DNA of 64,000 bases from an uncultured bacterium (GTDB taxonomy: Bacteria > Fidelibacterota > Marinisomatia > Marinisomatales > UBA1611): positions 256,001-320,000 of the forward strand of contig CBFIBM010000001.1 in assembly GCA_965660855.1 (NCBI GenBank), written 5' to 3'. Numbering within the stretch: position 1 is the stretch's first letter; every line of letters starts with the position of its first letter. The translations under genes were made by a program, and so were the position numbers. The notes under the pieces are model-generated. The model ran no database searches, had not been told where the DNA came from, and was given only the letters and a program-made list of their open reading frames with translations. Shown here piece by piece: positions 2,098 through 20,400 of the stretch.

Positions 2098-3231
2098 ATG
2101 AAAATACTTTTGTTAATTTTATTGTTAATGTCAAAAATTCAAGGACAGAAACTAGATGCAATTGACATTAATTTAAGAAACCTTAATGATGTCTTAGAAA
2201 CTGCACAAAGATCTTCTCAAAAAGTATTTGTTGACGATTTTACAGGCCTTTTGTGACCATACTGTCCCTCTGCGAGTTTCGCAATTTCAGAAATGTTAGA
2301 TTTATATCCAGAAACTTTGATTAGTGTCGAGTGGCACAGCTCAGGTTTTACTCCAGGAAATTCAGATTTTGATATACCAGCATATTCTACCAGGGCAGCG
2401 TTGTACAATGTAGGAGGTATTCCTCATACTCAATGGAATGGCGTTGTTTCAACTGTTGGTGGGTATCCAAATGGTAACTGGCAAGCCTTTATTGGAGAAT
2501 TTACAAATACCTATAATAGTATGGTTGGAGAAGAAACTCCATACAATATTGACATAAACGGTTACGCGGGTAATACTGTGAATTACGATGTTACGATTTC
2601 AATGGATTCTGATATGAGTAGCTCAAACCAGAAAGTTGATGTCTTCCTTGCTGAAGATAATATATGGTCTTATTGGAGCGGCGCAAGTTCATATCATAAT
2701 GCAAGATTTGTAGCAAGGGAATGGCTTTCTTCGGAGTATCTGAGTATCAGCAGTGCCGGCCAGAGTGAAACTTTTTCTGGTTCATTTGAATACAATGGAA
2801 ATTGGAATAGTGATAGCCTTTTTTTAATTGCTATTGTTCAAAACTATTCATCAAAACAAATTTATCAAGCCTCAAAAGTTAATATAAATGATATGGATCC
2901 GGATATTGATGATGATGGTATTTTGAATAATACTGATAATTGTATTGAAGATTACAATCCTCAGCAAGAAGATATTGATAACGATCAAATAGGTGATGCT
3001 TGCGATCCATGTAATAATTTAATTTATACTCTAGGCAACCCAAATGGTGATACAAATATCAATGGAGATCCCCTCATTGACATCATGGATGTCTTAACCC
3101 TTGTAGATTATCTTGCATTTGATCAAAATGAAAATATTTGCCAGGAACCAACTCTAAATATAAATCAAGATAATCATGTTAATATCGTTGATGTAATAAA
3201 TCTTGTTCAACTGATTCTTAATGGTGCATAA
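2098..3231 (+). CDS. Putative selenoprotein: Omp28-like thioredoxin-fold exported protein (UxxC) with TSP3-like repeats and C-terminal dockerin-like domain
   Basis: ATG 2098 gives MKILLLILLLMSKIQGQ...KVFVDDFTGLL-TGA(2254-2256)-PYCPSASFAISE, continuing in frame into the 2293..3231 ORF. The motif matches the Omp28-type 'v.vedFTg.wC.yCP', and 'YNVGGIPH' is the cis-Pro loop. The tail has DIDDDGILNNTDNC..CDPC and duplicated D/N-x-N-x-D..I.D dockerin loops. Confidence 0.85.
2257..2290 (+). promoter_or_regulatory. Candidate bacterial SECIS hairpin
   Basis: TGCGA(2271-2275)-GTT-TCGCA(2279-2283) is a perfect stem with a G-first loop 19 nt after the in-frame TGA. Confidence 0.65.
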
Positions 3232-3733
3232 TTTCTTAATAAAACCACTATTAAAATTTGTTTTTTTTAGTTCAGTTTTCTTTTCTTTTGCTCTTGCAAA
3301 AAAAGTTCCTGATTTAAATATTAAACTTATTGATGGATCAAAGACTACAATTCTAGAGCTTGCAGAAGATGGTCCATTATTAATTGATTTTTGGGCAACT
3401 TGGTGTGTTCCATGCAAAAAAGTGATGAAACATTTAAATCAATTTCATCTAAAATATGATGATCAAAATTTTAAGGTTTTAATGATTAATACAGATAGTC
3501 CTAGGTCTTTTGGAAAAGTAAAATCATTTATAAGATCTCAAGATTATAAATTTTATGTAGGGTTAGATCCTAACCAAATTACAGCCAGAAAACTTGATGG
3601 ATTAGTTATGCCTACTCTTATTTTAGTTGATGCAGGTGGGGAAATAACTTGGAGACATCAAGGTTACTCACCAGGTGATGAAAAAGAAATTGAAAATCAG
3701 ATTGAATTATTACTAAGTAAAAATACTAAATGA
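3221..3733 (+). CDS. TlpA/ResA-family thiol:disulfide oxidoreductase (exported)
   Basis: Signal peptide, LIDFWATWCVPCKK motif and MPTLILVD cis-Pro loop. Confidence 0.9.
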   Translation: MVHNFLIKPLLKFVFFSSVFFSFALAKKVPDLNIKLIDGSKTTILELAEDGPLLIDFWATWCVPCKKVMKHLNQFHLKYDDQNFKVLMINTDSPRSFGKVKSFIRSQDYKFYVGLDPNQITARKLDGLVMPTLILVDAGGEITWRHQGYSPGDEKEIENQIELLLSKNTK

Positions 3734-5682
3734 TATCAAAATTATTTAGGCTTAGTAAGCTTATTTTTCTTTTATGTTTTTTAACAGCTCAAGACTTTAG
3801 TTATAACGCCTCTATTAATTCAAGTTTTGGAAATAGTTATGATTTTTATTCTTTTTCAGAAAATAGGATAAACATCAACTTATTTTACAATAACTTTCAA
3901 AGTTGGGTTCAATATGAATATTCAAACCCACCCGACGTAGGTTTTCCAATTAATGATATAAGAAAATTTCGATTTGAATATCAAAATAAAGCTTTAAATA
4001 TTAAACTTGGCGACATTTATGAAATTTGGGGTAGGGGTTTAGTTCTTAATCAATTCGATGATCAACTTTTAGATTTTGACAATGGAATAAGAGGACTTTT
4101 TATAAATTATGGTAAAGGTCCGTTTAGTTTAACACACATAAATGGTAATGCAAATTTATGGAGTTACGGTCTTGATTTAAGAAAACCATATTATAATGAT
4201 AAGCATAATGTTATAGCAAACAGACTCCTTTATGAAAAAGGTTCCACAGTATTAGGCTTGACACATTTGATTTCTAGTGAAGAGCATTCCAAGTTAAATT
4301 TAGATGTAGTAGATGTGGGGCATACAATTAAGGGTATTTACGGTGATTATTCTTCTAATAATTTTGATATTTTTTTAGAATATGTAGATAAGGTCTCAAT
4401 CTCTAAAAATATAGTTTCAAATAATTTTCCAAATGATACCCTCAAAACAGGGTATGGTTTATATGGTAATTTGAATTTTTACTTAGGATCTTGGGGTCTA
4501 ACTACCGAGTATAAAAATTATTCTTTTGATTCGTTTATTAGTGATAAAACTCCAGATGATTATGGAAATCAAATTCAATTTCAACAAATGCCAACTTTAG
4601 GTAAGGAGCATAATTCAACGCTACTTGGTAGACTTAGCCATTATTATAATTTTAATGATGAAAGAGGTGTACAGTATGAGTTAAATGGATCATTTATAGG
4701 ACTGTCAATTAACCTTCAATATGCTCATTTAAGTAGGAATGAACAATGGTTTTCACAAAATGGCCCGTTTTCTTGGACAAATAAGATTTTGAGATCAAAA
4801 TTACCTAGTACAAAAATTAATACTAACCCATACTATGAAAACTTCCAAGAATTAAGTGGCTATCTGTTTGAAGATAAACTCTTTTTTAAGATTGGCAGGG
4901 GAGCAAATAAAGAAGTTTTAGGAACAAATTGGTTTTTTAATGGGGTTCAAACAGACACCTCTTATAGTTTGAGTTTTGCTTATGATACAACCTATTCGCC
5001 ATATGCTCCTGATTATCCAATAATTACGGTTGATAGCCTATATGACACATCTTCTGTTAGTTATAATATAAAAGCAGAGAATTGGAGAGAGAGTCAATCT
5101 TTTACGATTCCTGTTGAATTAAATTATACTATGTCAAGTGGATACTCCTTCGGAGTTGGTTTTCAGTACCAGGAGAGAACTTTAAATGAAAAAAGAAAAG
5201 GAAATTCTCATTCATATAATGTTGGAAATTCAAAATGGAATTTAGTTAATCCAGATGATTCAGACTATAAATCTACTTTAATTATATCTCAACTCTCTAT
5301 AAATGGTAAACCTAGGAAAATCCAACATAATCGTCTATTATCATTTACTTTAAGTAAAGCGCAGAAATGGTCAGTTACTATTACACAAGATTGGACTGAT
5401 GCATATGAGGTCCAATCATCTGATCCTTATTATAATCCATTAGAGGCAATAGTATATGGTGATTTAAAATATTTTACTGGGAAAAGAAATAATGTTTCTC
5501 CTCCTTCATTTATTCAAAATAAATGGGTTTCGGCAGAAGTATCATATAACATTAATTCATCTCAAAAAGTTTCAATTTTTTATGGATCTATTCAAGGTGG
5601 CTTATTCTGTAATAATGGAATATGCAGAATTATACCTGCATTCAATGATGGTATAAAAGTTGGCTATTATTTCAGTTTATAA
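3730..5682 (+). CDS. DUF6029-like outer-membrane beta-barrel protein with C-terminal CxxGxC motif (copy 1)
   Basis: Signal peptide, GDIYEIWGRGLVLN, QQMPTLGKEH, and C-terminal GGLFCNNGICRIIPAFNDG..YYFSL. ATGA-coupled to the TlpA gene. Family recalled from motif, not searched. Confidence 0.7.
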   Translation: MISKLFRLSKLIFLLCFLTAQDFSYNASINSSFGNSYDFYSFSENRININLFYNNFQSWVQYEYSNPPDVGFPINDIRKFRFEYQNKALNIKLGDIYEIWGRGLVLNQFDDQLLDFDNGIRGLFINYGKGPFSLTHINGNANLWSYGLDLRKPYYNDKHNVIANRLLYEKGSTVLGLTHLISSEEHSKLNLDVVDVGHTIKGIYGDYSSNNFDIFLEYVDKVSISKNIVSNNFPNDTLKTGYGLYGNLNFYLGSWGLTTEYKNYSFDSFISDKTPDDYGNQIQFQQMPTLGKEHNSTLLGRLSHYYNFNDERGVQYELNGSFIGLSINLQYAHLSRNEQWFSQNGPFSWTNKILRSKLPSTKINTNPYYENFQELSGYLFEDKLFFKIGRGANKEVLGTNWFFNGVQTDTSYSLSFAYDTTYSPYAPDYPIITVDSLYDTSSVSYNIKAENWRESQSFTIPVELNYTMSSGYSFGVGFQYQERTLNEKRKGNSHSYNVGNSKWNLVNPDDSDYKSTLIISQLSINGKPRKIQHNRLLSFTLSKAQKWSVTITQDWTDAYEVQSSDPYYNPLEAIVYGDLKYFTGKRNNVSPPSFIQNKWVSAEVSYNINSSQKVSIFYGSIQGGLFCNNGICRIIPAFNDGIKVGYYFSL

Positions 5683-5760
5683 AACCATTAATTGTTTCTT
5701 TTTATTAATTATCTTTTGAATTTTTCAGTTCCAAAAGTATATCGTGATATTTAAAATTAT

Positions 5761-6645
5761 GTGAAGAATTATATCTTAAGCATTCCTTTAGCAAAATTAA
5801 TTTTTATTCTATCTATTATTTTATCAAATACTATTTATCCTCAAATAGATATAGGTTCAATATCTCCTAATTTCACTGCTCCTGTATGCGCAAACGGTGA
5901 TCTCGAGTTATTCAACTTGTACCAACAAACTAATGGCAGTTTTAATGGTGGTGATTATAAAGTAGTATGGATCAATTTATTTACTTCTTGGTGACCAAGT
6001 TGCCAAGTGGAGGCTCCACTATCAGAAGAAATATGGCAAGAATATTTAAGCGGAGGGGAAGAAAAATTAGTTGTTATGGCAGCTGGGTTTGATTGGCATC
6101 AGCCTTATAGCTGTGAAGAATGGTCAACTGCATTTGGTATAACATACCTAATGGTAGATGATACAAATAATGAAGCATGGAATATTTATGGTGATGGCTA
6201 TATTCCGCATAATGTAGTGTTAGATCATAACATGCAGGTTCTATATACAAGTTCAGGATTTAACTCAAATGAAATAAAAGATGCAATCGATCTCGGCCTA
6301 TCTTATGTTCCAAGAGATTTAGATTTAGATGGAATTAATGATAACATAGATAACTGTGATGATATTTATAATCCTAATCAAGAGGATGTTGATGTAGATG
6401 GCATCGGTGATTTATGTGATAATTGCGATAACTATAATGTATTTATTTCTGGAAATACTGATGGTGGTTTAGTAAATGGAATTCCCATTTTAGATATTTT
6501 TGATGTGTTGAACCTAGTTGATATTGTTTTATTGGATGAATCTGGTACCTGTAGATCTGATATCTCAGATTTGAATTCAGATAATAATATTAATATTATT
6601 GATGTGATATTTCTTGTACAGGGGTTGTTAAATGGTGAATTTTAA
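5761..6645 (+). CDS. Putative selenoprotein: exported redoxin (UxxC) + TSP3-like repeats + dockerin-like domain
   Basis: ORFs 5761..5994 and 6007..6645 are in the same frame and joined by a single TGA (5992-5994), reading INLFTSW-U-PSCQVEAP. Paralogues at 13932 and 15002 read FTSWCGFC and FTSWCAYC. Confidence 0.9.
5995..6039 (+). promoter_or_regulatory. Candidate bacterial SECIS hairpin
   Basis: AGTGGA(6006-6011)-GGC-TCCACT(6015-6020) stem with the loop 17 nt after the TGA. Possible lower stem TTGCCA(6000-6005)/TGGCAA(6034-6039). Confidence 0.7.
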
Positions 6646-6757
6646 ATTCAAAAACTTAGTTAAGATTTAAACAATAAAAAATATTACAATTTAACATTCA
6701 TAAATGTTGATGTTTTTAAAGATTTAGATTAGAATTTATATATATATTTCTACATTC

Positions 6758-9700
6758 ATGAATATTTTTAAAAAAATGACCTTCTTCCTTCTGTTTTTTT
6801 CCTTAATTAAAGGTCAAGGTGATTATTCATTTAAAAATATTTCAGTAGAAGATGGACTTGCTGAAAGTACTGTAAAGATAATCTATGAGTCAAAACAAGG
6901 TTTTTTATTTTTTGGAACTGAAAATGGTCTTGATATTTTTGATGGTTATAAATTTAAAAACTATCATATGGATTCATTCGATAATGAATCAATTCTTGGA
7001 AATAAAGTTTCAGCTATTTACGAATCAAGTAATAATTTGATCTGGGTAGGAAGTGAGCTAGGATTTAGTTCATTTAATCCTTCAACACAAAAATTCAAAA
7101 GACCGTCATTAAGTAATAATAATATTACAAATCCAGAAAAAATTACAGAAGATGAAAGTGGGAAAATCTGGATTAAAGAGGCTCAATCTAGCCGTTTATT
7201 TAAATATGATTTTAATAAAGATATTCTTGAATGTATTTCATGTGATCAAATGAGCATCCTTTTTAATCAAACCATAAATATTCTACACAAATCGAATAAA
7301 GGTGCTTTGTGGATTGGTACTGATAAAGGTCTTTATTTTTATGATATTAATGATAAATCTATCAGGCCGATTGAATCAAAATATTCCTTAAGCATTAATG
7401 AGCCATATTATATTACATCAATTGAAAATGGATCAGATTCCATTTTATGGATAGGAACAAAACAAGGTCTTATCAAAATTGAAGAAAATAATAAGAGTCA
7501 AATTAAGATTTTTAAGAATTCGGAGGTTGAAAATTCTATCGTTTCTAACAAGATAAATGATATTAAATGGGATAATCTTAGGAATGAGTTATGGATTTCT
7601 ACTGTGGATGGAATTTCAAAATATTCACCTGAACTAAATTCTTTTTCTAACATTCAAGTAGGTCCGTTTGCTAATAGCATAATAGAAAATGATGTTACGG
7701 ATATTTTGATTGCTGAAAAGTCTGGAACTTTATGGTTTAAAACCAGAAACCGCTTTGGAATAAATAGTTTTAAAGCAACATTCAATGAATTTGAGGGGCC
7801 GGATACTTCAATTATGCATTTTGAACATGATCCTATTGATCCATTTTCTATTGCTGACAATGATATAACAAATTTTATTGAGGATAGAGCTGGCCACGTC
7901 TGGATAGGAACACGACAAAATGGGATAAGCTTTTATTCATTTTTGAAGCCTAAATTCTCATTGCTTGAATATGATCAAGAAAATGAATGGGGCCTCAAAA
8001 GTAATAAGATTTATTCAATTACAACCGATTCTTATGGTATGATGTGGGTTGCAACAGGGTTTGGATTAGAAAATATTTCTTCGGATGGTATTAGAGATTT
8101 TGAATTTGAAAAATCTTTTATTGAATCCAACCATGTCATGGATTTAGAGTTAGTAAATGATCAATATTTATGGGCGGCAACTGAAAATGGAATTCTTAGA
8201 ATTGATGTATTATCAGAAGAAATTATTCGATTTAACACCTCTCAAAATGTTAATAAAAAAAGATTAATTTCTGATAATTTTATTAGAGACCTGCTTATAA
8301 CAAAAAATGGTTCTATTTGGGCGGGGACAAAATCAGGAATTACAATAATAGATACAGTTGATTTAAGTGCTGTCAGTTTTAGCTCAGATTTTACTGCTAG
8401 GGTATTATACCAAGACGAAAGTGAAAATATATGGATAGGAACAGATTATAATGGATTATATCAAATACCATATGAAATTATTTCTGATCTAAAAAAAGAA
8501 GATATTTTTGAAGTAGAGGGTCATGTTTTTGACTCAGAGTTTTCTGATGGTCTATCATCTTCACAAATAACCTCTATAACTCAAGATACGACTGGTGTTT
8601 TATGGGTTGGTACAGCTAGTGGTTTAAATAAGTATATTGAAAGTGAAGATACCTTCTATCATTATTTCATGAAAGATGGTCTACCTAGTAACTATATTAC
8701 GGGTGTTATTGTAGATCAAAGTAATAACCTGTGGATAAGCTCTAAGAACGGTATTTCTTTCTTTAATCAGAAAGACTCTTCTTTTATAAATTATGGGGTT
8801 TCCGATGGAATAGGGAATATTGATTTTCATCAACATTCTTTTGAAAAAAGTATTGATGGAAACATATATTTTGGTGGGCCAAAAGGAATAACTAAAGTAA
8901 ATCCCTCAAATTTACAATATAATGAATACAAACCTCCTTGTTCAATTCTACGCATTAAAAAAACACTTTATGATGGATCTATTACTGAAGTTTTTCCTCA
9001 AAAAAGTTCGAAACTAGAAATTCAAAAGATTAATATAAATCATAAAGTAAAATCATTCTCAATCGATTTTGTTGCTCTGAATTATCATAAAACTATAAAG
9101 AATGAATATAGATATAAACTTCAACCTTTTGATAGGAATTGGGTAGAATCGGGGAATATTAAATTTGCATCTTACAATAATTTAGGTAGAGGAGAGTATA
9201 CCTTTTTTGTGCAAGGATCTAACGATGATGGATTATGGAGTCAGTCTGCTGTTTTAGATTTTAAATTTATTCCTCATCCTCTTTTAAGTTATGGTGCTTT
9301 TGGAGTCTATCTTGCACTAATTATATTTGGTGTATACTGGCTAGTTAAACAAAGAATATTAAAACAGCAATCTGAGGCTGATGAAAAGAGAAGAGCCGAA
9401 GAATTAGAGCAAGCTCGGGAATTCCAGATGTCACTAATACCTCAAAATCCTCCTTCTATCAGCGGATTTGAATTTGCTTTGCATATGAAAACATCTACGG
9501 AGGTTGGTGGTGATTATTATGATTTTTTTCCTCAAAAAAATAATGTTCTTTATGTAGTTTGTGGTGACGCCACTGGGCACGGTTTAAATGCTGGTATGAT
9601 GGTTTCAATTACAAAAGCAGGATTATTCGGATCAGACTTTAGTAATCCAGGTATTACAACTACTAGGTTAAATCAAACAATAAAAGCTATTGATCTTGGA

Positions 9701-10105
9701 ACAACAAGGATGTCTTTGAATATGGCTAAGTTTGAAAATGAATCCTTTGAGTTTACATCAGCTGGTATGCCTCCTGCATATTTATTTCGTGGTGAAACAA
9801 AGGTTGTAGAGGAAATTTTAATTCCTGGTTTGCCTCTGGGGTCTATGAAAAATGCTACATTTGATTCTGAGATATTTGAATTTAAAATAGATGATGCGTT
9901 AATCTTAATTTCAGATGGACTTCCTGAATGTGTTGACCATAAAGATGAAATGTTAGATTATGATGCAGTAAAGAACTGTATTGAAAAAAATGGGCATAAA
10001 TCAGCAAATGGCATTAAAGATGCCTTGATAAAATTGGGTGATGACTGGATGGACGGTCTAATGAATGATGATGATATAACATTGGTAATTATAAAGAGGA
10101 AATAG
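6758..10105 (+). CDS. Membrane sensor: two-component-type beta-propeller repeats + Y_Y_Y domain + TM + SpoIIE/PP2C Ser/Thr phosphatase
   Basis: Repeated 'LWIGT..GL' propeller motifs, YRYKL..FD..W/ASYNNL.RGEYTF (Y_Y_Y), a TM near residue 850, then EVGGDYYDF, GDATGHG, LISDGL and DDDITLV PP2C motifs. Confidence 0.9.
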   Translation: MNIFKKMTFFLLFFSLIKGQGDYSFKNISVEDGLAESTVKIIYESKQGFLFFGTENGLDIFDGYKFKNYHMDSFDNESILGNKVSAIYESSNNLIWVGSELGFSSFNPSTQKFKRPSLSNNNITNPEKITEDESGKIWIKEAQSSRLFKYDFNKDILECISCDQMSILFNQTINILHKSNKGALWIGTDKGLYFYDINDKSIRPIESKYSLSINEPYYITSIENGSDSILWIGTKQGLIKIEENNKSQIKIFKNSEVENSIVSNKINDIKWDNLRNELWISTVDGISKYSPELNSFSNIQVGPFANSIIENDVTDILIAEKSGTLWFKTRNRFGINSFKATFNEFEGPDTSIMHFEHDPIDPFSIADNDITNFIEDRAGHVWIGTRQNGISFYSFLKPKFSLLEYDQENEWGLKSNKIYSITTDSYGMMWVATGFGLENISSDGIRDFEFEKSFIESNHVMDLELVNDQYLWAATENGILRIDVLSEEIIRFNTSQNVNKKRLISDNFIRDLLITKNGSIWAGTKSGITIIDTVDLSAVSFSSDFTARVLYQDESENIWIGTDYNGLYQIPYEIISDLKKEDIFEVEGHVFDSEFSDGLSSSQITSITQDTTGVLWVGTASGLNKYIESEDTFYHYFMKDGLPSNYITGVIVDQSNNLWISSKNGISFFNQKDSSFINYGVSDGIGNIDFHQHSFEKSIDGNIYFGGPKGITKVNPSNLQYNEYKPPCSILRIKKTLYDGSITEVFPQKSSKLEIQKININHKVKSFSIDFVALNYHKTIKNEYRYKLQPFDRNWVESGNIKFASYNNLGRGEYTFFVQGSNDDGLWSQSAVLDFKFIPHPLLSYGAFGVYLALIIFGVYWLVKQRILKQQSEADEKRRAEELEQAREFQMSLIPQNPPSISGFEFALHMKTSTEVGGDYYDFFPQKNNVLYVVCGDATGHGLNAGMMVSITKAGLFGSDFSNPGITTTRLNQTIKAIDLGTTRMSLNMAKFENESFEFTSAGMPPAYLFRGETKVVEEILIPGLPLGSMKNATFDSEIFEFKIDDALILISDGLPECVDHKDEMLDYDAVKNCIEKNGHKSANGIKDALIKLGDDWMDGLMNDDDITLVIIKRK

Positions 10106-10116
10106 GTTAAACTCTC

Positions 10117-10683
10117 ATGATAAAAAATACAATTAGAATAATCTATTTGCTTATGTTTCTTTCACTTGGATATTCTCAAGAAAAAATACCAAACTTGAGA
10201 CTTAAAATGTTGAATGGAAAATATGCAAAAGTAAATGATTTTTTAAAAGATGGACCAATGATTATAGATTTTTGGGCTACTTGGTGTGAGCCATGTAAGA
10301 AACAGATGAAATATCTTAATATATTTAATAATCATTTTAAGGAAACTGGATTTAAAGTACTTGCTGTTAACACTGATACACCTAAAAGTATGAGTAAGGT
10401 TAAATCTTATGTCAGAACAAAAAAGTTTGAGTTTGACGTTGCAGTGGACCCGAATAGTCAGGTTAAAAAGAAAATGAAGGTTTTGCAAATGCCTACAACT
10501 ATTTTAGTTGATAAAACTGGACAAATAGTTTTTAGACATCAAGGATATTTACCTGGCGATGAACATGATATTCTTCAAGCTATTTATGGTTTAATGGATA
10601 AAAACAATACTAGTTATGAAAAACTTGATTTGAATAAGAACAATAAAAAACAAATTAAATCCGGTGCTGAAGTTGATTTTTAA
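10117..10683 (+). CDS. TlpA/ResA-family thiol:disulfide oxidoreductase (copy 2)
   Basis: Signal peptide, IIDFWATWCEPCKK and MPTTILVD. Clear paralogue of 3221..3733. Confidence 0.9.
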   Translation: MIKNTIRIIYLLMFLSLGYSQEKIPNLRLKMLNGKYAKVNDFLKDGPMIIDFWATWCEPCKKQMKYLNIFNNHFKETGFKVLAVNTDTPKSMSKVKSYVRTKKFEFDVAVDPNSQVKKKMKVLQMPTTILVDKTGQIVFRHQGYLPGDEHDILQAIYGLMDKNNTSYEKLDLNKNNKKQIKSGAEVDF

Positions 10684-12946
10684 TAAGCAAATAATTGTAT
10701 CATTCATATTGATACTTAGTAATTCAGATTTATTTTCCCAAATAACAGCTGGTGGGAACTCTATTCTAAAATTTGGCGAGAGTAAAAATGAATTTCACTA
10801 TTCAGAGGTTTTGCTGAATATGAACTTATCAAATGATTATTTGGAGACTTGGTTTCAATTCGAATACAGCAAACCACCTGAGATTGGGATGAGTATTAAT
10901 GGTCTGAGAAAATTTAGGATTGACTATTCTGATGGCCCTTTCGAATTATCTGTTGGAGATATATATAAAATTTGGGGGAGGGGGTTAATATTGAACCAGT
11001 TTGATGATCAGGATGTAAATCTTGATAATGGTTATAGAGGATTAAGTTTCAGTATAATAAAAGATAACTATACCATTGATTTAATATCTGGAATTTCAAA
11101 TATACATAGAATTAGTCAAGATTACTGGCAAAATATAGATCAAGAATCAAGAAAGCCAAATCATTTATCAAAACATTCTATGTTTGGTAGTGATTTAGAG
11201 TTTTTTCAAGGACCTTTTTCTCTAGGTTTATCCTTTCTTCAAAGTAGAGAGAATCATCCCATCAATAATCCGATCACGATGATGGCAGATAGTATTAATG
11301 TAATTCATCGAATAAATGGTTTAAGAGCCGGATATGAAGGCGGGCGTCTCGCCTCCTACTTAGAATTATCTGGAAAAAATACGCTATTATCTCAATCCGA
11401 AAGTCAAATATATAAGGAAAATTTTAATCCTTATAATGGCTTCAGTCTTTTTGGAAATATTAATTATTATTTTCAAAGTCAGCTTCTAGACGGATGGTCA
11501 TTAACAATGGAGTATAAAAACTACAATACAACAAAATTAAATACATCAGATAAAGACAATTTTGTTAAAAATTATGATATGAATTTAATTTTTACTCAAC
11601 CCCCGACTGTTTTAAGGGAACATAGCAGTGTATTTTTAGCTAGACTTATTCCTCAGGTAAATTTCAGCGATGAAGTAGGTTATCAATTTTCTCTTGTTGG
11701 TCCTATTATGGGGATAGGGTATTTTACTCTCAACTATCAAGCCGCAAGTAGAACAAACTTATGGGGTAAAACATACCCAGATACTGTAAATGCTATATTA
11801 TCTACTAAATGGGAAAGTGATAGTGCAGTTACCGTATTGCCATTCAGTGAAAAATCCGGACTGCCATACAATGAACTTTATCTTGAAATGGAAGGTTACA
11901 TAAAAAATATTAGGTATCAATTTGGCTTTGGTATCACAAACAAAATACCTGAATATCATTCGTCGTATAATAGTGGAAAGAATGGTGTCTGGGATAATGG
12001 TGAAGCGTTTGATGATTTAAATGGCAATAATATTTATGATATTGGAGAAAATTTTACTGATCTTTACAGTATAGTAAATGAAAAAATTGATAATAAAACT
12101 GTTACAGCCATTACAATACCTTCTCTTCTAAATTATAATTTAGGAAATGGGTGGAGTATTGATTTAAAATATGAATTTCAAAAGATTAAAAGTGGTACAA
12201 AATATTATAATTCATTGTCCTCTGATGAAGTATTCTATGATAGTAATGGAAATGGTGTTTGGGATATTGCAGAGTTATTTGAAGATAGTAATGGTGATGG
12301 TATTTGGAACCAAGCTGAAGAGACATGGTATGATTTATGGCAAAGTGGTTTAATACCCGATGAACAATTATACTACTATGATACTGACGGCGATGGTTTA
12401 TTTTCGGAGGGAGAATATTTTACTGATGCTGATGGAAATGGCATGTGGAATTCATCAGAAAACTTAATTGATGAAGATGGTGATGGAATATGGGATGATT
12501 CAGAGTATTTGGAGGATCTAAATAATGATGGAGTCTGGACAAAAAGTGGAGTGTATGAAGATAGGTATCAATCTAATTTTTATTCAAATGATTCAAAAAG
12601 TGGGTTGAGTATTCCTGAAGATTTTCAAAATAATCATCTGATATCACTCGGAATAGGAAAATCGCCTTATTGGTCACTATCTTTAACGGTTGAATCAAGT
12701 TCAACCTATGAATATGGTCCATTAAAAAATAGTGTTGTTAATCCTCTAGAGAGTTTCTTAGGTAATATTATTGATTTAAATAATAAGTGGATTGCTTTAG
12801 AATTTATGGTGAATATAAATTCAAATACTAGGCTCGATTTAATGTACGGTACGCAAAGGGGAGGGATTATTTGCAGTAATGGAATTTGTAGGTATGTTGA
12901 ACCTTTCGATGATGGATTTAAATTAGCGTTATCAACAGTATTTTAA
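10664..12946 (+). CDS. DUF6029-like outer-membrane protein (copy 2) with inserted acidic DxxGxGxWD repeats
   Basis: Shares GDIYKIWGRGLILNQFDDQ, QPPTVLREH and C-terminal GGIICSNGICRYVEPFDDG with 3730..5682, and ends in Phe. Confidence 0.7.
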   Translation: MLKLIFNKQIIVSFILILSNSDLFSQITAGGNSILKFGESKNEFHYSEVLLNMNLSNDYLETWFQFEYSKPPEIGMSINGLRKFRIDYSDGPFELSVGDIYKIWGRGLILNQFDDQDVNLDNGYRGLSFSIIKDNYTIDLISGISNIHRISQDYWQNIDQESRKPNHLSKHSMFGSDLEFFQGPFSLGLSFLQSRENHPINNPITMMADSINVIHRINGLRAGYEGGRLASYLELSGKNTLLSQSESQIYKENFNPYNGFSLFGNINYYFQSQLLDGWSLTMEYKNYNTTKLNTSDKDNFVKNYDMNLIFTQPPTVLREHSSVFLARLIPQVNFSDEVGYQFSLVGPIMGIGYFTLNYQAASRTNLWGKTYPDTVNAILSTKWESDSAVTVLPFSEKSGLPYNELYLEMEGYIKNIRYQFGFGITNKIPEYHSSYNSGKNGVWDNGEAFDDLNGNNIYDIGENFTDLYSIVNEKIDNKTVTAITIPSLLNYNLGNGWSIDLKYEFQKIKSGTKYYNSLSSDEVFYDSNGNGVWDIAELFEDSNGDGIWNQAEETWYDLWQSGLIPDEQLYYYDTDGDGLFSEGEYFTDADGNGMWNSSENLIDEDGDGIWDDSEYLEDLNNDGVWTKSGVYEDRYQSNFYSNDSKSGLSIPEDFQNNHLISLGIGKSPYWSLSLTVESSSTYEYGPLKNSVVNPLESFLGNIIDLNNKWIALEFMVNINSNTRLDLMYGTQRGGIICSNGICRYVEPFDDGFKLALSTVF
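12238..12545 (+). repeat. Coding repeat: ~6 acidic D-x-[ND]-G-[DN]-G-x-W/F units (putative Ca-binding loops)
   Basis: DSNGNGVWD, DSNGDGIWN, DTDGDGLFS, DADGNGMWN, DEDGDGIWD, DLNNDGVWT. Confidence 0.8.
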
Positions 12947-13015: not shown

Positions 13016-13909
13016 ATGAAAAAATTCATTTTAAAGTTTTTTATTTTATTTTCTATAACATTTCCCTCATTTGTTATATGTCAGGGTCAAATTATACAAG
13101 ATTTTTCCTACCCAATTTGTGCTAATGGTGATGGTGAAACAGTTTTAAATTTTTATGAATCATTCAACGGATCAGTAAACAATTGTGAGTATAAAGTAGT
13201 TCTTGCTACACTTTTCACCTCCTGGTGACCATCCTGTATGACGGAGGCTCCGGTTCTAGAAGAAATATTTAACACCTACAAAGATCAAGGATTAGAAGTT
13301 GTTGCATTTGGAGCCGACTGGTATCCTGATGGACCCTATACTTGTGAAGGGTGGGATCAACAATTTAATCTTTCTTACCCAATACTTGATTTTGAGACAG
13401 GATTAGAAAATTGGTATTGGGAGTCAGCTCCGTATGATTTATACCAGCCCGAGTTAGGTTGGGGGTTACCTTTTAATGTAATAATAAATCATGAGATGGA
13501 AGTTTTATGGGGTGCAGCAGCCAACTTTGAGGGTGATGTAATGGCTGAGGCTATAGGTGTTATTGAATCAGCTCTCCAAGCGTTGAATGAAGAATTTCCC
13601 GATGGTCCAGGGGATGATGATGGAGATGGAATAGCAAATGGTTGTGATCCTTGTCCAGAATCTCATTTACACCATCCTGGAAATTTTGATTTTTCTCAGG
13701 TTTATTCACATTTTGATAATGGTGCAGTCTTTGTACCATCTGTAGATATTTTTGATTTAATACTATTTTCAGATTATATAATGGATGGTGGCTACCTAAC
13801 TGATTGTATCTTAGAGGCGCACGATATTACCGGGGATGGTTATGTCAATCCTTTCGATGTTATAGCATTAGCTCAATTAATTCTTGGAAATGATTGGGGT
13901 TTAAATTAG
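13016..13909 (+). CDS. Putative selenoprotein: exported redoxin (UxxC) + short TSP3-like motif + dockerin-like domain
   Basis: ORFs 13016..13228 and 13238..13909 are in the same frame and joined by one TGA (13226-13228), reading ATLFTSW-U-PSCMTEAP. Homologous throughout to 5761..6645. Confidence 0.9.
13229..13260 (+). promoter_or_regulatory. Candidate bacterial SECIS hairpin
   Basis: CGGA(13242-13245)-GGC-TCCG(13249-13252), with the same GGC loop and 17-nt spacing as at 6006-6020. Confidence 0.65.
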
Positions 13910-13931: not shown

Positions 13932-14855
13932 ATGAAATTATTTTATCATATTTTTCAGAAGAGTATTATTATTTTTGTTTTAATTTATACTTCTACCACT
14001 TCAGAAATGCAAGGTCAGGTAGCTGTAGGTGACACTATAAACCCTTCTCAATTAAGTTTACCAATTTGCGCTAATCAAGAACCCTTTGGCCCTTCAGAGC
14101 AATTTTTTGATATTTCGATTTATAATAACCCAGATCAAGATTCACAATCAAAAGTAATTTTACTTTCTATTTTTACATCATGGTGCGGATTTTGTCAAAC
14201 TGAAGCTACACACTTACAAGATTTACATACTGAATTTGCCGATGATGGATTGTTAGTTGTTTCAGCTGGAGGAGATTGGGGTTTTCCATATGATTGTGAG
14301 GGTTGGTCTAATGAATTTGATTTAAGTTATCCAATATTAGATTTTATGAATCCCTTTAATCCTAATTGGGGAGAAGCGCCATTAATGACCTATTTAGGAG
14401 TAGCTGCAATACCCTTTAATGTAATTATAGATCATAGGAACATAGTCTCAAATATTATAATAGGATATAATGAGGAAATATTGAACCTAGCTATTGAAGA
14501 TGCTCTTGAAGCAATGATTCAAGATAGTGATGGTGATGGAATTAATTCTGAAGCAGATAACTGTCCATCAATATTCAACCCAGGTCAATCTGATTTTGAC
14601 GGTGATGGCATAGGAGATGTCTGCGATGCTTGTGATAATCTTAATATATTTGTTAACGGAAATCTTAATGGTACATTAAATCTTGATCAAGAACCAACCA
14701 TTGATATTCTAGACTTATTGTTACTGGCCGACTTCCTTGAGGGATTACCAGATCAAAATATCTGTCATGAGGCTGCCTCTGATATTAATGAGGATTCTAA
14801 TATAAATTTACTTGATGTATTTTCACTTGCCTATCAAATTACTGGGCAAAATTAA
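13932..14855 (+). CDS. Exported redoxin (CxxC, Cys paralogue of the selenoproteins) + TSP3-like repeats + dockerin-like domain
   Basis: Signal peptide, PICAN, IFTSWCGFCQTEA, IPFNVIID, DSDGDGINSEADNCP..CDAC and a dockerin-like tail. Confidence 0.88.
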   Translation: MKLFYHIFQKSIIIFVLIYTSTTSEMQGQVAVGDTINPSQLSLPICANQEPFGPSEQFFDISIYNNPDQDSQSKVILLSIFTSWCGFCQTEATHLQDLHTEFADDGLLVVSAGGDWGFPYDCEGWSNEFDLSYPILDFMNPFNPNWGEAPLMTYLGVAAIPFNVIIDHRNIVSNIIIGYNEEILNLAIEDALEAMIQDSDGDGINSEADNCPSIFNPGQSDFDGDGIGDVCDACDNLNIFVNGNLNGTLNLDQEPTIDILDLLLLADFLEGLPDQNICHEAASDINEDSNINLLDVFSLAYQITGQN

Positions 14856-15001: not shown

Positions 15002-15916
15002 TTGTTAAAAAAAAATTTTAAAAAAATAAATTACCTCAAAGTATTTACAATACTTTTATTGCAATCATTATTATATAGTCAAATTGCAATTGGTGATACT
15101 GTCTTTAATCTGCAATTACCAATATGTGCTAATTCTGATCCTGATATTCACGAACAGCAATATTTTGATATAAATGATTATAATGGTTTTCCCGAAAGTA
15201 CTATCAGCCCAAGGGTAATTCTTCTTGCAATCTTTACTTCATGGTGTGCGTATTGTCAAACTGAAGCGTTCCTTTTAGAAGATTTACATGAGGAGTATAT
15301 TGATGATGGATTATTGGTCCTTTCTGCTGGTGGTGATTGGGGCTTCCCATATGATTGTAGTGGTTGGGCAAATTCATTTAATTTAACTCATCCAATATTA
15401 AATTTTATGACAACTAATGTGGAAAGTTGGGAAGATGCTCAATTGATAAACTATTTGGGAGTTGGTATTGTACCACATGCTGTTGTAATTGATCATCGAA
15501 ATATTCTTTCAAACACCATTGTGGGTTATAATCCTAATGCTTTGAATCAAGCTGTTGAAAGTGCGCTTGAAACAATGGCTCAAGACCTTGATGGTGATGG
15601 AGTTTTATTTGATGATGATAATTGTCCTTCAATTCATAACCCAGAACAAATAGATATTGACAATGATAACCTTGGTGATGAATGTGATTTATGTGATAAT
15701 CTTAATAATTTTGTAATTGGCAATCTAAATGGTACACTAGATCAATTTCAGCAAGCAACCATTGATATTTTTGATTTATTGTTATTAACTGATTTTTTAG
15801 ATAATTCTTACGAGAATAATGTATGCTCTAACGCTGTATCCGATATTAATGGTGATAATTCTATAGATCTAATTGACGTATTTACGCTTGCTTATATTAT
15901 TTCAGAACAAAATTAA
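15002..15916 (+). CDS. Exported redoxin (CxxC) + TSP3-like repeats + dockerin-like domain; tandem paralogue of 13932..14855
   Basis: TTG start, PICAN, IFTSWCAYCQTEA, shared SAGGDWGFPYDC, DLDGDGVLFDDDNCP..CDLC. Confidence 0.88.
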   Translation: MLKKNFKKINYLKVFTILLLQSLLYSQIAIGDTVFNLQLPICANSDPDIHEQQYFDINDYNGFPESTISPRVILLAIFTSWCAYCQTEAFLLEDLHEEYIDDGLLVLSAGGDWGFPYDCSGWANSFNLTHPILNFMTTNVESWEDAQLINYLGVGIVPHAVVIDHRNILSNTIVGYNPNALNQAVESALETMAQDLDGDGVLFDDDNCPSIHNPEQIDIDNDNLGDECDLCDNLNNFVIGNLNGTLDQFQQATIDIFDLLLLTDFLDNSYENNVCSNAVSDINGDNSIDLIDVFTLAYIISEQN

Positions 15917-16325: not shown

Positions 16326-16608
16326 AATTATATTTAATGTAGAATTTTTGTAATATTCATATCTTGAGTAATTTATTTTTTTTATAAAGTTTTTTAAATG
16401 AAAATAATCATTAATGATTATTCAATCTATTTACTTATTAATCTTGATTAATTCTTTTTCGTTTGCTCAGGAAACATGATTTATTTAAAATTTGCCATAA
16501 ACTGACTATTGAGCTTATATTCTAGTAGAGTAAAGTACTCACGAGGTAAGTGAAAAAGTTAAATAATTGAAGATCACACGGTGCGGTGTGTCTTATATGG
16601 AGTTCAAC

Positions 16609-17403
16609 ATGTCGAAAAGAATGAATAGTTCTATTCTTATTCGTGCAGTTCAAATTATAATTTGGACTAGCCTATTTCTACTTATTTTAACCCCCACATC
16701 CCTAATATATGGTCAGGATGCTGAAGATGATGTTGAAGAATATTTTGGAGATGATGATGAATATTTAGATGATGAAGAATACCTTGATGATGAAGAATAC
16801 CTTGATGATGATGAATATGACGATGAATATGACGATGAAGAATATGATGATGAAGAATATGACGATGAAGAATATGAGGATGAAGAATATGAGGATGAAA
16901 TTCTTGAGGATAGTGCTGAAAATTTAGGTTACACAATTGACCTCGCTCTCGGTTCACCGCGATTCACAAATAGAGTACTCATGGATTGGACTTCTGCAGT
17001 CGACCTTCGGGCAAGTGTAGAGTTTCCAATTTTAATGCAATTGCTTGGTGCAAATTTTAGATTTGGTGCTGAAGTTGGTTCTTTCAAGTTTGAGAATGCT
17101 ATTCCTAAAGAAGAGGCAGATGGAAGCCTCCTTCAATTAGGTGAGACAATAAGTGGCATTACTGCTATGGGTATTGTTTCGTTTCCAGCAGGACCGGGAA
17201 AAATTAAATTTGGTGCTGGTCTTGTAGGCTCTTCTCCAGGTTTTTCCATGGAAGCTTCATACGGTATACGCATAGGTGAAATGGTAGAGATAAGAGGTGG
17301 GATTAGATCTACAGAAGCATTAAATACGAAAACTTCTGAATCCAATGAACTTGGTAGGGCGGGTTGGATGGATGGACAAATTGTTTTAGGTGTAAACCTT
17401 TAA
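16609..17403 (+). CDS. Exported protein with long Asp/Glu/Tyr repeat and probable small beta-barrel C-terminus
   Basis: ATG 16609 is preceded by GGAG (the ORF track starts at TTG 16567). Signal peptide ending IYG-Q, an acidic tract, then amphipathic strands ending WMDGQIVLGVNL. Confidence 0.7.
   Translation: MSKRMNSSILIRAVQIIIWTSLFLLILTPTSLIYGQDAEDDVEEYFGDDDEYLDDEEYLDDEEYLDDDEYDDEYDDEEYDDEEYDDEEYEDEEYEDEILEDSAENLGYTIDLALGSPRFTNRVLMDWTSAVDLRASVEFPILMQLLGANFRFGAEVGSFKFENAIPKEEADGSLLQLGETISGITAMGIVSFPAGPGKIKFGAGLVGSSPGFSMEASYGIRIGEMVEIRGGIRSTEALNTKTSESNELGRAGWMDGQIVLGVNL
16750..16899 (+). repeat. Imperfect tandem repeat (18-nt then 12/15-nt units) encoding (DDEEYL)n(DDEEY)n
   Basis: GATGATGAAGAATACCTT-like units followed by GA[CTG]GATGAAGAATAT units. 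Confidence 0.9.
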
Positions 17404-17413
17404 AATCTAAACA

Positions 17414-20400
17414 ATGTATAAATCATATAATTCTAAGTATTTATCTGTCGTATTATTCCTGTTTTTTCAGTCGGGTTTGATATTTGGACAAGCTATTGAT
17501 TTTTATCCTGCTGGTCAAGTAGCAGATGGTGATAATATTTACAATATTAATTCAACAGTTGCAACTAATGGTCCTTTTTCTGGGTCAAATGCCGGTGGAG
17601 TATGGGTAACGGGATCAAGTCTTGAATACACTTCATGGGATGTTCAAATACAATTTGATGGTGGGGCGTTTACTACTATAAACGGTGATGGTTCAAATGA
17701 TGATAATGCCTCTGCTAATGGGCAAAGTTTTGGAAGTGCAACTGTTCGCCCAACTGCTGATGGTGATCTTAATATCTGGTTTAGTCATGCAGAGATTGCG
17801 GCCACCTCAGGTTATCCTGGAACTGTTGATGGGATTAACATCTCATTTAGAATAAGAAAAGTAAGTGATGGTAGTACATTACCAACTTCGCCACAAGATT
17901 ATGCCTTTGATTTAGTTGCTCCGACTCTTACTTCTGCCAGTATAGCTTCAGATAACGATAATACAAGTTGGGCTAAGTCTGGCGACAATATTACCATAAC
18001 GTTAACTGCACCAAGTGGAAGTGACGGAGAAAATTTAGGTACCTCAGATCAATGGTCAACATCAATTCAGGGTCTTGGTGCTTCTGTATCAGGTTCAGGG
18101 CTTGTTTGGACTGTCTCAGCAACTGTAAGTAGTCATCCGGAAGGGACTGTTTATTTTCAAATAACATATTACGATGCATATGAAAACCCAGGAACTGTAC
18201 TAACCGCTGTAGTGGGAAATACTTCACAAGTAATAATAGATAAGACTCCCCCTAATATTTCAGCTACAATTCTATCAGATGATAATACAAATAATACACA
18301 ATATTTAGCGACTACTGGTGACGACGTTACTTTAACAATTACTGCAACTGATGATGATGGAGGTGCAGAGATTATTCAAGTTCCAACCGTAACTATTGAC
18401 GGAAATACTCCTACTGGAAGTAATCTTTCTGTTCCAGCTAGTTCCTACACTGCTTACAGAACGATGCAAGCAGGTGATACGCAAGGAGATGTTGGCTTTG
18501 CAATTACTGGTATAAAAGATAGAGCCGGTAATACGGCTACCAATGTAACTGCTGTTACATCTGGTAGTAATGTTCGGTTTGATTCAGCTGTTCCAACAAT
18601 AAATTCTCTCACAGTTGCATCAAATAACGCCATTGCGAGTAATAAAGCTACCATAGGAGATGTTATAACTATTTCCTTTGCATCAACTGGTAATGAATCT
18701 TTACAAACTCCTGTTGTTACTATCGATGGTGAAGATGCGCTTGAGCAACAAAATGGGAATGCTTATACTTGGACAGCAACAAAAACAATGGATGCGGAAG
18801 ATACGGAGCGACTTACGCAGTTCTCATTGAATTTTAAAGATTTAGCTGCTAACAGTGGTACCGCTTTAGATCATGGTGATATTACAGCTGGTACACTTGT
18901 TGATTTTGACGCAACGCCTCCAACAATTAATTCGGAAACTGCTTCCACCACAAATTCCTACGATAACACGCTAGCAATTTTAAATCAGGTCATCTCTATT
19001 GATATTGTAAGTGCTGAAGAACTCTATAGTATTAAGGATGTTCTTATCGCAGGGAAAGCGGTAGCTGATCAAGTGACTGCAGCAACAAATGTAACAGATT
19101 GGACTATAAATCATGTAGTGGATGGTACGGAAGCGGATGGGTATGTTGGTTATTCTTACACAGCTGTTGATTTAGCTGGAAATGAGACAAATGTAGTTAA
19201 ATCAAGTAGTAGTATTCGTATCGATAACTCAAAACCAGTGCTAAATACAGTTACCATTATTTCAAATAATACAAATACTGCTTACGCAAAAATTGGTGAT
19301 GTTGCTACGATAAATATTGTTGCAAATGAGGCTCTCCGCATTAGCCCTGTTGTTTCGATTCAAGGGAGAACTGCGACTATCGCTGCTGCAGGAGATGGCA
19401 TCACCTTTACAGCAACTCATACCTTTGATAATACTGATACTGAAGGTCTCGTAGCTTTTCAAATTGATTTTGAAAATGCTTTTGGACTTGCTGGAGACAG
19501 AATTATTGATGATGGTACAGGTTCCACAACTAATAATGGCGCAACCGTAAGGTTTGATAGAACAGCTCCTACATTAAACCCTGTTACTGTAACATCAAAT
19601 AATAATAATTCTTCATATGCGAAAGTAGGTGATATTGTTACGTTATCTTTTACTTCTATTGAAGCGATTCAAGATCCACCAACAGTCGTTTTCCTAAGCA
19701 CACCGGGAGATAATCGAGCTGGGACTGTTTCTGGAAGTGGTACAAGTTGGAATGCAACATATACTATGCAAAACTCTGATACAGAGGGAGATGTTGATTT
19801 TTACATTGATTTTGTTGATATCGCGGGGAATACGGGTGTAAGAGAAACAAGTCTTTCATCTGGAAGTGAAATTATTTTTGATCGTGATATACCCGAACTC
19901 ACAACTGTAGATATATCCTCGAGTAATGCAAATCCAGCTCTATCAAAAGTTGGTGATGTTATAACCTTAGCTATTACTTCAGATGAAGATATTCAGATAC
20001 CGACTGTTACTATTGCAGGAACCACAATAGCTAGTGAAAATATTACCGGTAATGATGGTGAAAGAAACTTCACAGCTACATATACGATGCAAAGCTCAGA
20101 CAATACAACAGCTGCTATTGGTTTTACAATTGATTTTGCAGATCTTGCAAATAATTTAGGAACTCAAAAAACAGCTATAGTAAATGATGGAGATGGACTT
20201 GGAGTTGGTTTTGACAAACAGGCGCCAGGTTTAAATATTGTTACTATACTTTCGAATAATGATAATAGAGCAGGAACAGGAAATAAAACTGGTTTAGCAA
20301 TAGTAAATGATATCATCACTTTAAACTTTGAGTCAGACGAAGATTTAAAAACTGGAGTGACTCCGGCTGTCCTTATTGCGGGAAATGCTGCAACGGTTGT

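Follow-up and report, generated by a model that had tools for sequence, protein, structure and literature searches.

What does a single pair of cysteines do in an outer-membrane β-barrel, and why should such a barrel be encoded in overlap with a periplasmic thioredoxin? The question is raised by a 64,000-nucleotide stretch of DNA from an uncultured bacterium of the Marinisomatales (GenBank assembly GCA_965660855.1, contig CBFIBM010000001.1, positions 256,001 to 320,000; hereafter the window), in which two barrel proteins of the Pfam family DUF6029 (PF19494), P0001 and P0002, each follow a gene for a TlpA/ResA-type thioredoxin and each carry a C-x4-C pair shortly before the last β-strand. The original prediction made for this locus saw in the pair a mobile dithiol loop in the barrel lumen that shuttles reducing equivalents across the outer membrane. 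In the analysis presented here, C-x4-C emerges as the defining cysteine pair of the DUF6029 family and the TlpA gene as a constant, often translationally coupled partner of the barrel, and structure prediction places the thioredoxin inside the periplasmic half of the barrel with its active-site face directed at the cysteine hairpin. We consider it quite possible, if a little short of an even chance, that the CxxC motif of TlpA has its cognate partner for thiol-disulfide exchange in the hairpin pair, with probable onward delivery to redoxins at the cell surface.

The window is AT-rich (32% G+C), and the named relatives of its proteins in the homologue listing belong to Candidatus Marinimicrobia (SAR406). 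P0001 and P0002 both score above the DUF6029 gathering cut-off of 27 bits (Table 1), have no other Pfam match, and are the only DUF6029 copies in the 2.09-Mb assembly. Their C-termini read ...SIQGGLFCNNGICRIIPAFNDGIKVGYYFSL (P0001, translation of 3730-5682) and ...TQRGGIICSNGICRYVEPFDDGFKLALSTVF (P0002, translation of 10664-12946). Translation and a cysteine count agree with what had originally been read from the letters: the motif cysteines are encoded at 5608 (C627) and 5623 (C632) in barrel 1 and at 12872 (C737) and 12887 (C742) in barrel 2, and they are the only cysteines of the mature proteins, P0002 having no further one and the sole extra cysteine of P0001, C16, lying within the signal peptide. 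The two barrels are indeed diverged, with 31-35% identity, and the described overlap of each with the upstream thioredoxin gene is found as well: the TlpA1 stop and the barrel 1 start share the ATGA at 3730-3733, and TlpA2 and barrel 2 overlap by 20 nt, provided that the GTG start at 10664 is correct.

A profile-free scan of 1.84 billion representatives returned 490 relatives at E ≤ 0.001, 150 of which are among the matches listed; the full-length set consists of the 94 listed 50%-identity representatives of at least 480 aa, the 56 shorter ones being left out. C-x4-C occurs within the last 70 residues in 92 of these 94, so that the family-wide conservation named by the original prediction as a check on its claim is borne out among the matches listed. 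The two representatives without the pair, P0125 and P0140, lack the family C-terminal tail and are seemingly cut short at the C-terminus. The wider motif GG..C..G.C. is present in 122 of 122 barrel proteins (P0001, P0002, and 120 close homologues among the matches listed), which at the level of sequence is a conservation far beyond chance. Alignment A1, made of the 92 motif-bearing representatives together with P0001 and P0002 (94 rows), has a mean column identity of 18% and only ten invariant columns, five of which are G619, G624, C627, G630, and C632; the invariance of C627 and C632 in A1 restates the count of 92 in 94, because its rows were picked for the motif. The most conserved ten-residue block of the family is 621-630 (0.69), ahead of 101-110 (0.66), and the family consensus reads Y-G-S-[EQ]-[RK]-G-G-x-x-C-[STA]-[NGS]-G-[IV]-C-[RA]-x-x-x-P-F-x-G. 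Exactly two cysteines are found beyond residue 30 in 65 of the 94 A1 rows.

The partner gene was followed in 80 loci from Ignavibacteria, Melioribacteraceae, Balneolia, Rhodothermaceae, and metagenome-assembled genomes (MAGs) labelled Bacteroidota; since these were fetched with the 15-row subgroup alignment A2, they represent the relatives nearest that subgroup and not a random sample of the family. A same-strand TlpA-like open reading frame (ORF) lies 5′ of the barrel in 78 of the 80 loci and directly adjoins it in all but one (L010, where the distance is about 1 kb), and the two exceptions, L066 and L072, both begin at a contig edge. Where both ORFs were called (71 pairs), the two genes share 4 nt in 28 cases and are spaced by 36 nt or less in 66, figures that are approximate because starts were set by a first-start rule. 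Within Marinisomatota, DUF6029 was found in 68 of the 151 genomes searched (51 of 95 high-quality genomes), and a same-strand TlpA-like match stands upstream of the barrel in 29 of 29 loci fetched. In 95 of 109 loci, the thioredoxin and hairpin motifs share a strand and are separated by 1.6-2.8 kb; at L110, the barrel was missed by tblastn, yet both motifs are present 1853 nt apart. Altogether, the module ranges over Marinisomatota, Ignavibacteria, and MAGs with the labels Bacteroidota, Rhodothermaceae, and Balneolia.

An ordinary signal peptide without a lipobox is typical of the barrel-linked thioredoxins. Of 75 of them, 72 contain W-C-x-x-C, and W61, C62, C65, and the cis-proline P131 are invariant in 60 rows. 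TlpA1 and TlpA2 are 44% identical, score above the Pfam cut-offs for both Redoxin and AhpC-TSA, and display the features of the TlpA/ResA/CcmG type. With 66.8 and 97.1 bits against the NCBIfam ResA model (NF002854, cut-off 170 bits) and 56.5 and 65.9 bits against the TlpA model (NF047696, cut-off 230 bits), they fall far below these cut-offs and form a distinct subfamily instead of being ResA or TlpA proper. The nearest solved relative of the subfamily profile is the uncharacterised 2m72 (E 1.3e-30), followed by ResA. The WCxPC motif and the cis-proline of ResA, TlpA, and 2m72 are retained, whereas a two-residue longer D-S-P-K-S..K-V-K-S-Y segment and a C-terminal G-Y-x-P-G-D-E motif are unaligned in ResA and only partially echoed in 2m72 (QKVK, GY..G.E). 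Both of these subfamily-specific segments fall in the interface with the barrel predicted below.

An AlphaFold2 model of barrel 1 built on A1 has a mean predicted local distance difference test (pLDDT) value of 88.7 and a predicted template modelling (pTM) score of 0.87. It comprises 24 long strands, the first starting at residue 23 and the last reaching residue 649, with connections of two to four residues at 54-55, 86-88, 130-131, 171-172, 209-211, 253-254, 323-324, 380-383, 468-471, 544-546, and 610-611; the alternate connections are longer, save for the first, which has three residues. In the model, this is the usual pattern of periplasmic turns and extracellular loops, with both termini periplasmic. 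The cysteine hairpin, formed by strands 624-628 and 631-635 around an N629-G630 turn, is placed between strand 23 (612-621) and strand 24 (638-649) and therefore projects from the outer ends of both. A search of the PDB with the P0001 sequence gave no meaningful match (one chance match at E 0.011) and thus no solved structure related in sequence to the barrel, and Foldseek against the PDB returned generic large barrels only, with template modelling (TM) scores of 0.3-0.45. The top matches of an exhaustive VIA-align comparison are the usher pores FimD (Z 16.1; root-mean-square deviation 4.3 over 359 residues) and PapC (Z 15.0). The ushers are 24-stranded, as is the DUF6029 model; in contrast to it, they match an usher Pfam family and contain a plug domain and periplasmic N- and C-terminal domains, and identity is 9-10%. 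The likeness thus reflects barrel size and not family, because the DUF6029 barrel has no usher signature, plug, or extra periplasmic domain.

A different structural kinship has been suggested by Saidi et al. 2022 (PMC9603273), the only publication naming DUF6029 that was found in a literature search; in the part of this study of outer-membrane polysaccharide export (OPX) proteins drawn on here, DUF6029 figures as a Wzi-related barrel for polysaccharide export, and some Wzi-barrel-like hits near OPX genes are described as having HHpred similarity to DUF6029. On this account, the protein would be an export porin and its cysteines incidental. Besides the reported HHpred similarity, the presence of AlgE among the structural matches (Z 13.3) is in keeping with it; Wzi itself is not among the best 50 entries listed. 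The sole Poly_export gene (PF02563) of the genome, however, lies at C1:37087, about 220 kb from the barrels, and the neighbours conserved across the 78 loci analysed include no OPX-like cluster, so that the proposal goes without synteny support. As it also accounts for neither the invariant cysteines nor the obligatory TlpA, we regard it as hardly probable at all.

The complex of the two proteins was predicted from barrel 1 residues 22-650 (alignment A1) and TlpA1 residues 27-170 (alignment A3). The interaction prediction score from aligned errors (ipSAE) was 0.78, 0.76, and 0.77, as against a best value of 0.01 in three controls, and the runs showed 142-151 contacts with a partner pLDDT of 84-85 and at least 90% contact agreement. 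According to the prediction tool, 116 of 157 solved complexes and 2 of 215 mismatched pairs attain this mark, counts that hold only roughly here because custom alignments were used. We know of no solved complex of the barrel-plus-thioredoxin kind, and for this reason a score arising from a memorised structure seems unlikely. The prediction supports binding of TlpA to the barrel. On the side of the barrel, the interface comprises the N-terminus (22-30), residues 647 and 649 at the C-terminus, and ten of the eleven short turns (all but 130-131), spanning 11 of the 12 periplasmic strand-end regions; since turns and termini of the periplasmic side take part, the barrel wall would surround TlpA at the periplasmic mouth. 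As far as models go, the interface agrees independently with the topology derived from the barrel alone. It further includes 97-110 and 288-295, each the conserved stretch of a long outer loop, and 629 at the tip of the hairpin. As these three elements touch TlpA, they are predicted to bend into the lumen and roof over a TlpA-filled cavity. TlpA1 contributes T60-W61-C62-V63, V129 beside the cis-proline P131, and segments 93-108 and 144-156, which are specific to the subfamily. Structure prediction had been put forward as the means of locating the loop relative to the lumen, and the predicted complex sets the hairpin tip where the original prediction had expected it, inside the lumen, with residue 629 touching TlpA, whose side of the interface includes C62.

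Such an arrangement would also suit a redox-gated channel, in which docked TlpA reduces the hairpin, frees the lumenal loops, and thereby opens the 24-stranded barrel as a pore through which a substrate is imported or exported. In size, the barrel resembles the usher pores, and the hairpin and the two most conserved loops jointly make up the surface touched by TlpA; among the 78 loci analysed, however, there are no conserved transporter, substrate-binding, or catabolic neighbours, and we judge a channel of this kind improbable. More improbable still is that the barrel serves to carry TlpA to the cell surface or to expose it there, TlpA then acting as a surface-displayed thioredoxin for which the hairpin cysteines are a resting partner only. 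The modelled position of TlpA in the lumen, its active site towards the outer half, would fit such a display, but the outer half of the lumen seems shut by loops 97-110 and 288-295 together with the hairpin, and TlpA is made with an ordinary signal peptide and without a lipobox.

Should the hairpin pass electrons on, the genes around the barrels offer candidate recipients at the cell surface. Directly upstream of TlpA1, the window encodes a selenoprotein whose TGA at 2254 is read as U53; the part after the TGA reaches 461.5 bits against the model for Omp28-related selenoproteins (NF045500, cut-off 200). Its predicted structure (overall pLDDT 73, with values exceeding 90 across much of the core and falling under 50 in the tail) shows a thioredoxin-like fold in which U53-x-x-C56 starts the helix 56-69 after strand 43-50, followed by a β-sandwich. 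Among the structural matches, HBP35 of Porphyromonas gingivalis ranks first (5y1a, Foldseek E 1.7e-12), ahead of 2axo and the Omp28 structure 2r2c. HBP35 is described as a cell-surface protein with thioredoxin activity in vitro in the portion of the report used here (PMC2907840). HBP35 and Omp28 combine a thioredoxin-like domain with a β-sandwich, as does the third gene of the module, which encodes a CxxC protein mostly equipped with a type IX sorting domain; in contrast, the window copy has a selenocysteine and a TSP3/dockerin-like tail in place of the type IX tail.

At least 900 nt of sequence follow the barrel in 73 loci; an Omp28-family domain, counted by its N-terminal domain alone, is encoded downstream in 61 of them, and in 58 of these 61 its start is on the same strand and no more than 400 nt away. 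A first neighbour clustering had merged unrelated type IX cargo with the Omp28-like genes by way of the shared sorting domain, and the genes were recounted. The Omp28-like proteins of the loci carry a type IX secretion sorting domain, and their N-terminal CxxC is invariant in 47 rows, which were picked for having it. Every neighbour cluster other than TlpA and the Omp28-like genes is confined to at most 16 of the 78 loci analysed. The window's genome encodes a DsbD_TM protein (contig C2) and the type IX translocon protein SprA (G000:C60).

The main rival to an exchange partner is a disulfide that serves as a structural staple: it would only rigidify a lumen-closing hairpin, TlpA being a dedicated folding catalyst (oxidase, isomerase, or holdase) or a permanent plug, and no electrons would travel onward. 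As a plug, TlpA would be comparable to LptE in LptD, perhaps with a mixed disulfide as a tether. LptD is a 26-stranded barrel with a jellyroll domain and functionally important disulfides, and the lipoprotein LptE sits inside its lumen; both systems would thus pair a very large outer-membrane barrel that has important disulfides with a small lumen protein derived from the periplasm. They differ in that there is no sequence relation, that LptE is a lipoprotein without redox chemistry, and that the plug predicted here is a thioredoxin in a barrel of 24 strands without a jellyroll. A staple would be well served by the C-x-N-G-x-C geometry of the hairpin, with G630 invariant and asparagine at 629 in 65 of 94 A1 rows, as it would by the plug-in-barrel arrangement of the predicted complex and by the universality of the TlpA-barrel pair in a set of loci where the third gene may be missing. 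On the other hand, it would be unusual for three phyla to retain a family-specific thioredoxin for the sake of one structural disulfide; TlpA/ResA-type proteins act as reductases in the systems studied to date; and the product of the frequent third gene is itself a surface-directed protein with CxxC or UxxC. A purely structural disulfide is for these reasons unlikely in our view, though far from negligible.

An exchange partnership between the hairpin and TlpA is preferred because the hairpin is invariant, the thioredoxin obligatory, a surface-aimed third partner frequent, and the plug modelled against the hairpin tip. Several points weigh against it. A two-residue NG turn bridged by a disulfide is a textbook case of a structural staple, and the cysteine pair lies outside the CxxC-at-helix context. 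The modelled plug geometry itself is a difficulty, as a buried thioredoxin with its active site upwards would be hard for DsbD to re-reduce unless it cycles on and off the barrel, and a single hairpin residue (629) is named in the predicted interface. How the hairpin would reach a surface partner is a further difficulty, and no Omp28-like gene lies within 6 kb in 12 of the 73 loci; where absent from the locus, the third partner may have its gene in another part of the genome or be dispensable. No natural DUF6029 member without the cysteines was found for contrast among the representatives listed, and no TlpA-barrel fusion among the 150 listed. Finally, a comparison of 96 motif pairs from 95 loci shows that the CxxC dipeptide does not vary together with the hairpin residues in any informative way, the signal being unusable because the differences follow kinship.

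A precedent for thiol-disulfide exchange by an all-β module is the N-terminal domain of DsbD (nDsbD), which, in the section of the source relied upon here (PMC3137068), has an immunoglobulin fold and reduces CcmG and DsbC through Cys103-x5-Cys109. Like the DUF6029 hairpin, it bears a non-CxxC cysteine pair on an all-β scaffold and exchanges with thioredoxin-fold partners—among them the TlpA/ResA-type CcmG—in a relay that carries reducing power through a membrane (PMC3137068). In contrast, DsbD resides in the inner membrane and employs an α-helical domain, whereas DUF6029 is a β-barrel with C-x4-C at a hairpin tip; as P0001 and P0002 have no DsbD_TM (PF02683) match in Pfam, the likeness is one of working mode and not of membership. 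On the preferred reading, each barrel is made together with its own periplasmic TlpA/ResA-type thioredoxin, which would plug the periplasmic half of the barrel and rest its CxxC face on loops 97-110 and 288-295 and on the hairpin tip. The cysteine pair, held across a short NG-turn hairpin that according to the model dips into the lumen, would as a dithiol/disulfide be the dedicated redox partner of the TlpA CxxC, much as nDsbD C103-x5-C109 is for CcmG. TlpA would be kept reduced by the DsbD of the genome, and the barrel cysteines would hand reducing equivalents towards co-encoded surface proteins of the thioredoxin fold. In Ignavibacteria and Bacteroidota, these are CxxC proteins that resemble Omp28 and HBP35 and bear type IX tails, and in the window they are UxxC selenoproteins with dockerin-like tails. 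The most economical full path would run from DsbD to TlpA, on to the barrel hairpin, and from there to the surface CxxC/UxxC proteins. That DUF6029 and TlpA form an outer-membrane counterpart of DsbD, and with it a complete trans-membrane thiol relay, is a doubtful yet serious possibility.

In a literature search that excluded supplements, no publication was found that describes the cysteine motif, the TlpA-DUF6029 pair, or the trio, nor one that links Omp28 with a selenoprotein. A barrel with a predicted internal redox enzyme and an invariant cysteine hairpin would, on sequence and model evidence, have no described counterpart, and the cysteine pair with its dedicated thioredoxin suggests a so far undescribed thiol chemistry inside the outer membrane. 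Surface thioredoxin-like proteins such as HBP35 and the marine Omp28-related selenoproteins are known, and how they are kept reduced outside the periplasm has no known answer; a cysteine-hairpin barrel with an internal thioredoxin, if real, would provide a concrete and testable route, and a redox enzyme plugged into a barrel would add an architecture to outer-membrane biology. A complete relay, should it exist, would be the first to cross a bacterial outer membrane by thiol chemistry, and it would be the power supply for the surface selenoprotein redoxins of marine SAR406 and for the HBP35/Omp28-type proteins of Bacteroidota. Even a conservative reading is useful, because it gives the first functional context for DUF6029, a Pfam domain of unknown function.

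Table 1. Coordinates of the barrels, their cysteine hairpins, the thioredoxins, and the tailed redox proteins in the window
Feature	Position	Strand	Support
Omp28-related selenoprotein (377 aa; U53 in U-P-Y-C56; TSP3/dockerin-like tail), likely surface partner, module 1	2098..3231	+	NF045500
TlpA/ResA-like periplasmic thioredoxin 1, TlpA1 (170 aa; signal peptide; W61-C62-V-P-C65)	3221..3733	+	Redoxin 70.9 bits, AhpC-TSA 65.7 bits
DUF6029 outer-membrane barrel 1 (P0001, 650 aa)	3730..5682	+	PF19494 87.3 bits; AlphaFold2
GGLFCNNGICR, C627-x4-C632 hairpin of barrel 1, between barrel strands 23 and 24	5596..5628	+	Translation, alignment, model
Redoxin-type selenoprotein (S-W-U78-P-S-C; TGA at 5992), TSP3/dockerin-like tail, directly 3′ of barrel 1	5761..6645	+	
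TlpA/ResA-like thioredoxin 2, TlpA2 (188 aa; W-C57-E-P-C60)	10117..10683	+	AhpC-TSA 85.2 bits, Redoxin 80.1 bits
DUF6029 barrel 2 (P0002, 760 aa; repeat-rich loop insertion)	10664..12946	+	PF19494 75.0 bits
GGIICSNGICR, C737-x4-C742 hairpin of barrel 2	12860..12892	+	Translation, Cys count
Redoxin-type selenoprotein (S-W-U71-P-S-C; TGA at 13226), dockerin-like tail, directly 3′ of barrel 2	13016..13909	+	
Cys paralogue of tailed redoxins (S-W-C-G-F-C)	13932..14855	+	
Second Cys paralogue of tailed redoxins (S-W-C-A-Y-C)	15002..15916	+	

The four tailed redoxins downstream of the barrels constitute a paralogous AhpC/Redoxin-like array, in which standard ORF calling truncates both selenoproteins. 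Barrel 2 contains a loop insertion that is absent from barrel 1 (12185-12598, P0002 residues ~508-645, with a smaller stretch near 437-470) and is rich in acidic D/N-x-D/N-G-D/N-G-x-W repeats, copies of which read NGNGVWD, NGDGIWN, DGDGLFS, DGNGMWN, DGDGIWD, and NNDGVWT. The repeats look like calcium-binding loops, and the insertion may be a docking surface for the adjacent TSP3/dockerin-tailed redoxins.

Among the loci of other genomes, those without an Omp28-like gene are L036, L043, L050, L051, L053, L060, L069, L073, L075, L079, L082, and L084; the TlpA-barrel pair is present in all 12. In nine loci, the next downstream gene is a member of a 547-aa neighbour cluster. Within the window, a 1115-aa protein with Reg_prop β-propeller repeats, a Y_Y_Y domain, and a SpoIIE/PP2C phosphatase domain (6758-10105, + strand) is encoded between the first redoxin selenoprotein and TlpA2 and is a possible regulator of the second module. 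Two ORFs without a Pfam match flank the cluster on the + strand, one at 702-2021 (439 aa, with a hydrophobic N-terminus) and one at 16567-17403 (278 aa). Further downstream, a 4247-aa ORF (17414-30157, + strand) with seven matched stretches of Big_13 immunoglobulin-like domains and a C-terminal type IX sorting domain encodes a giant surface protein.

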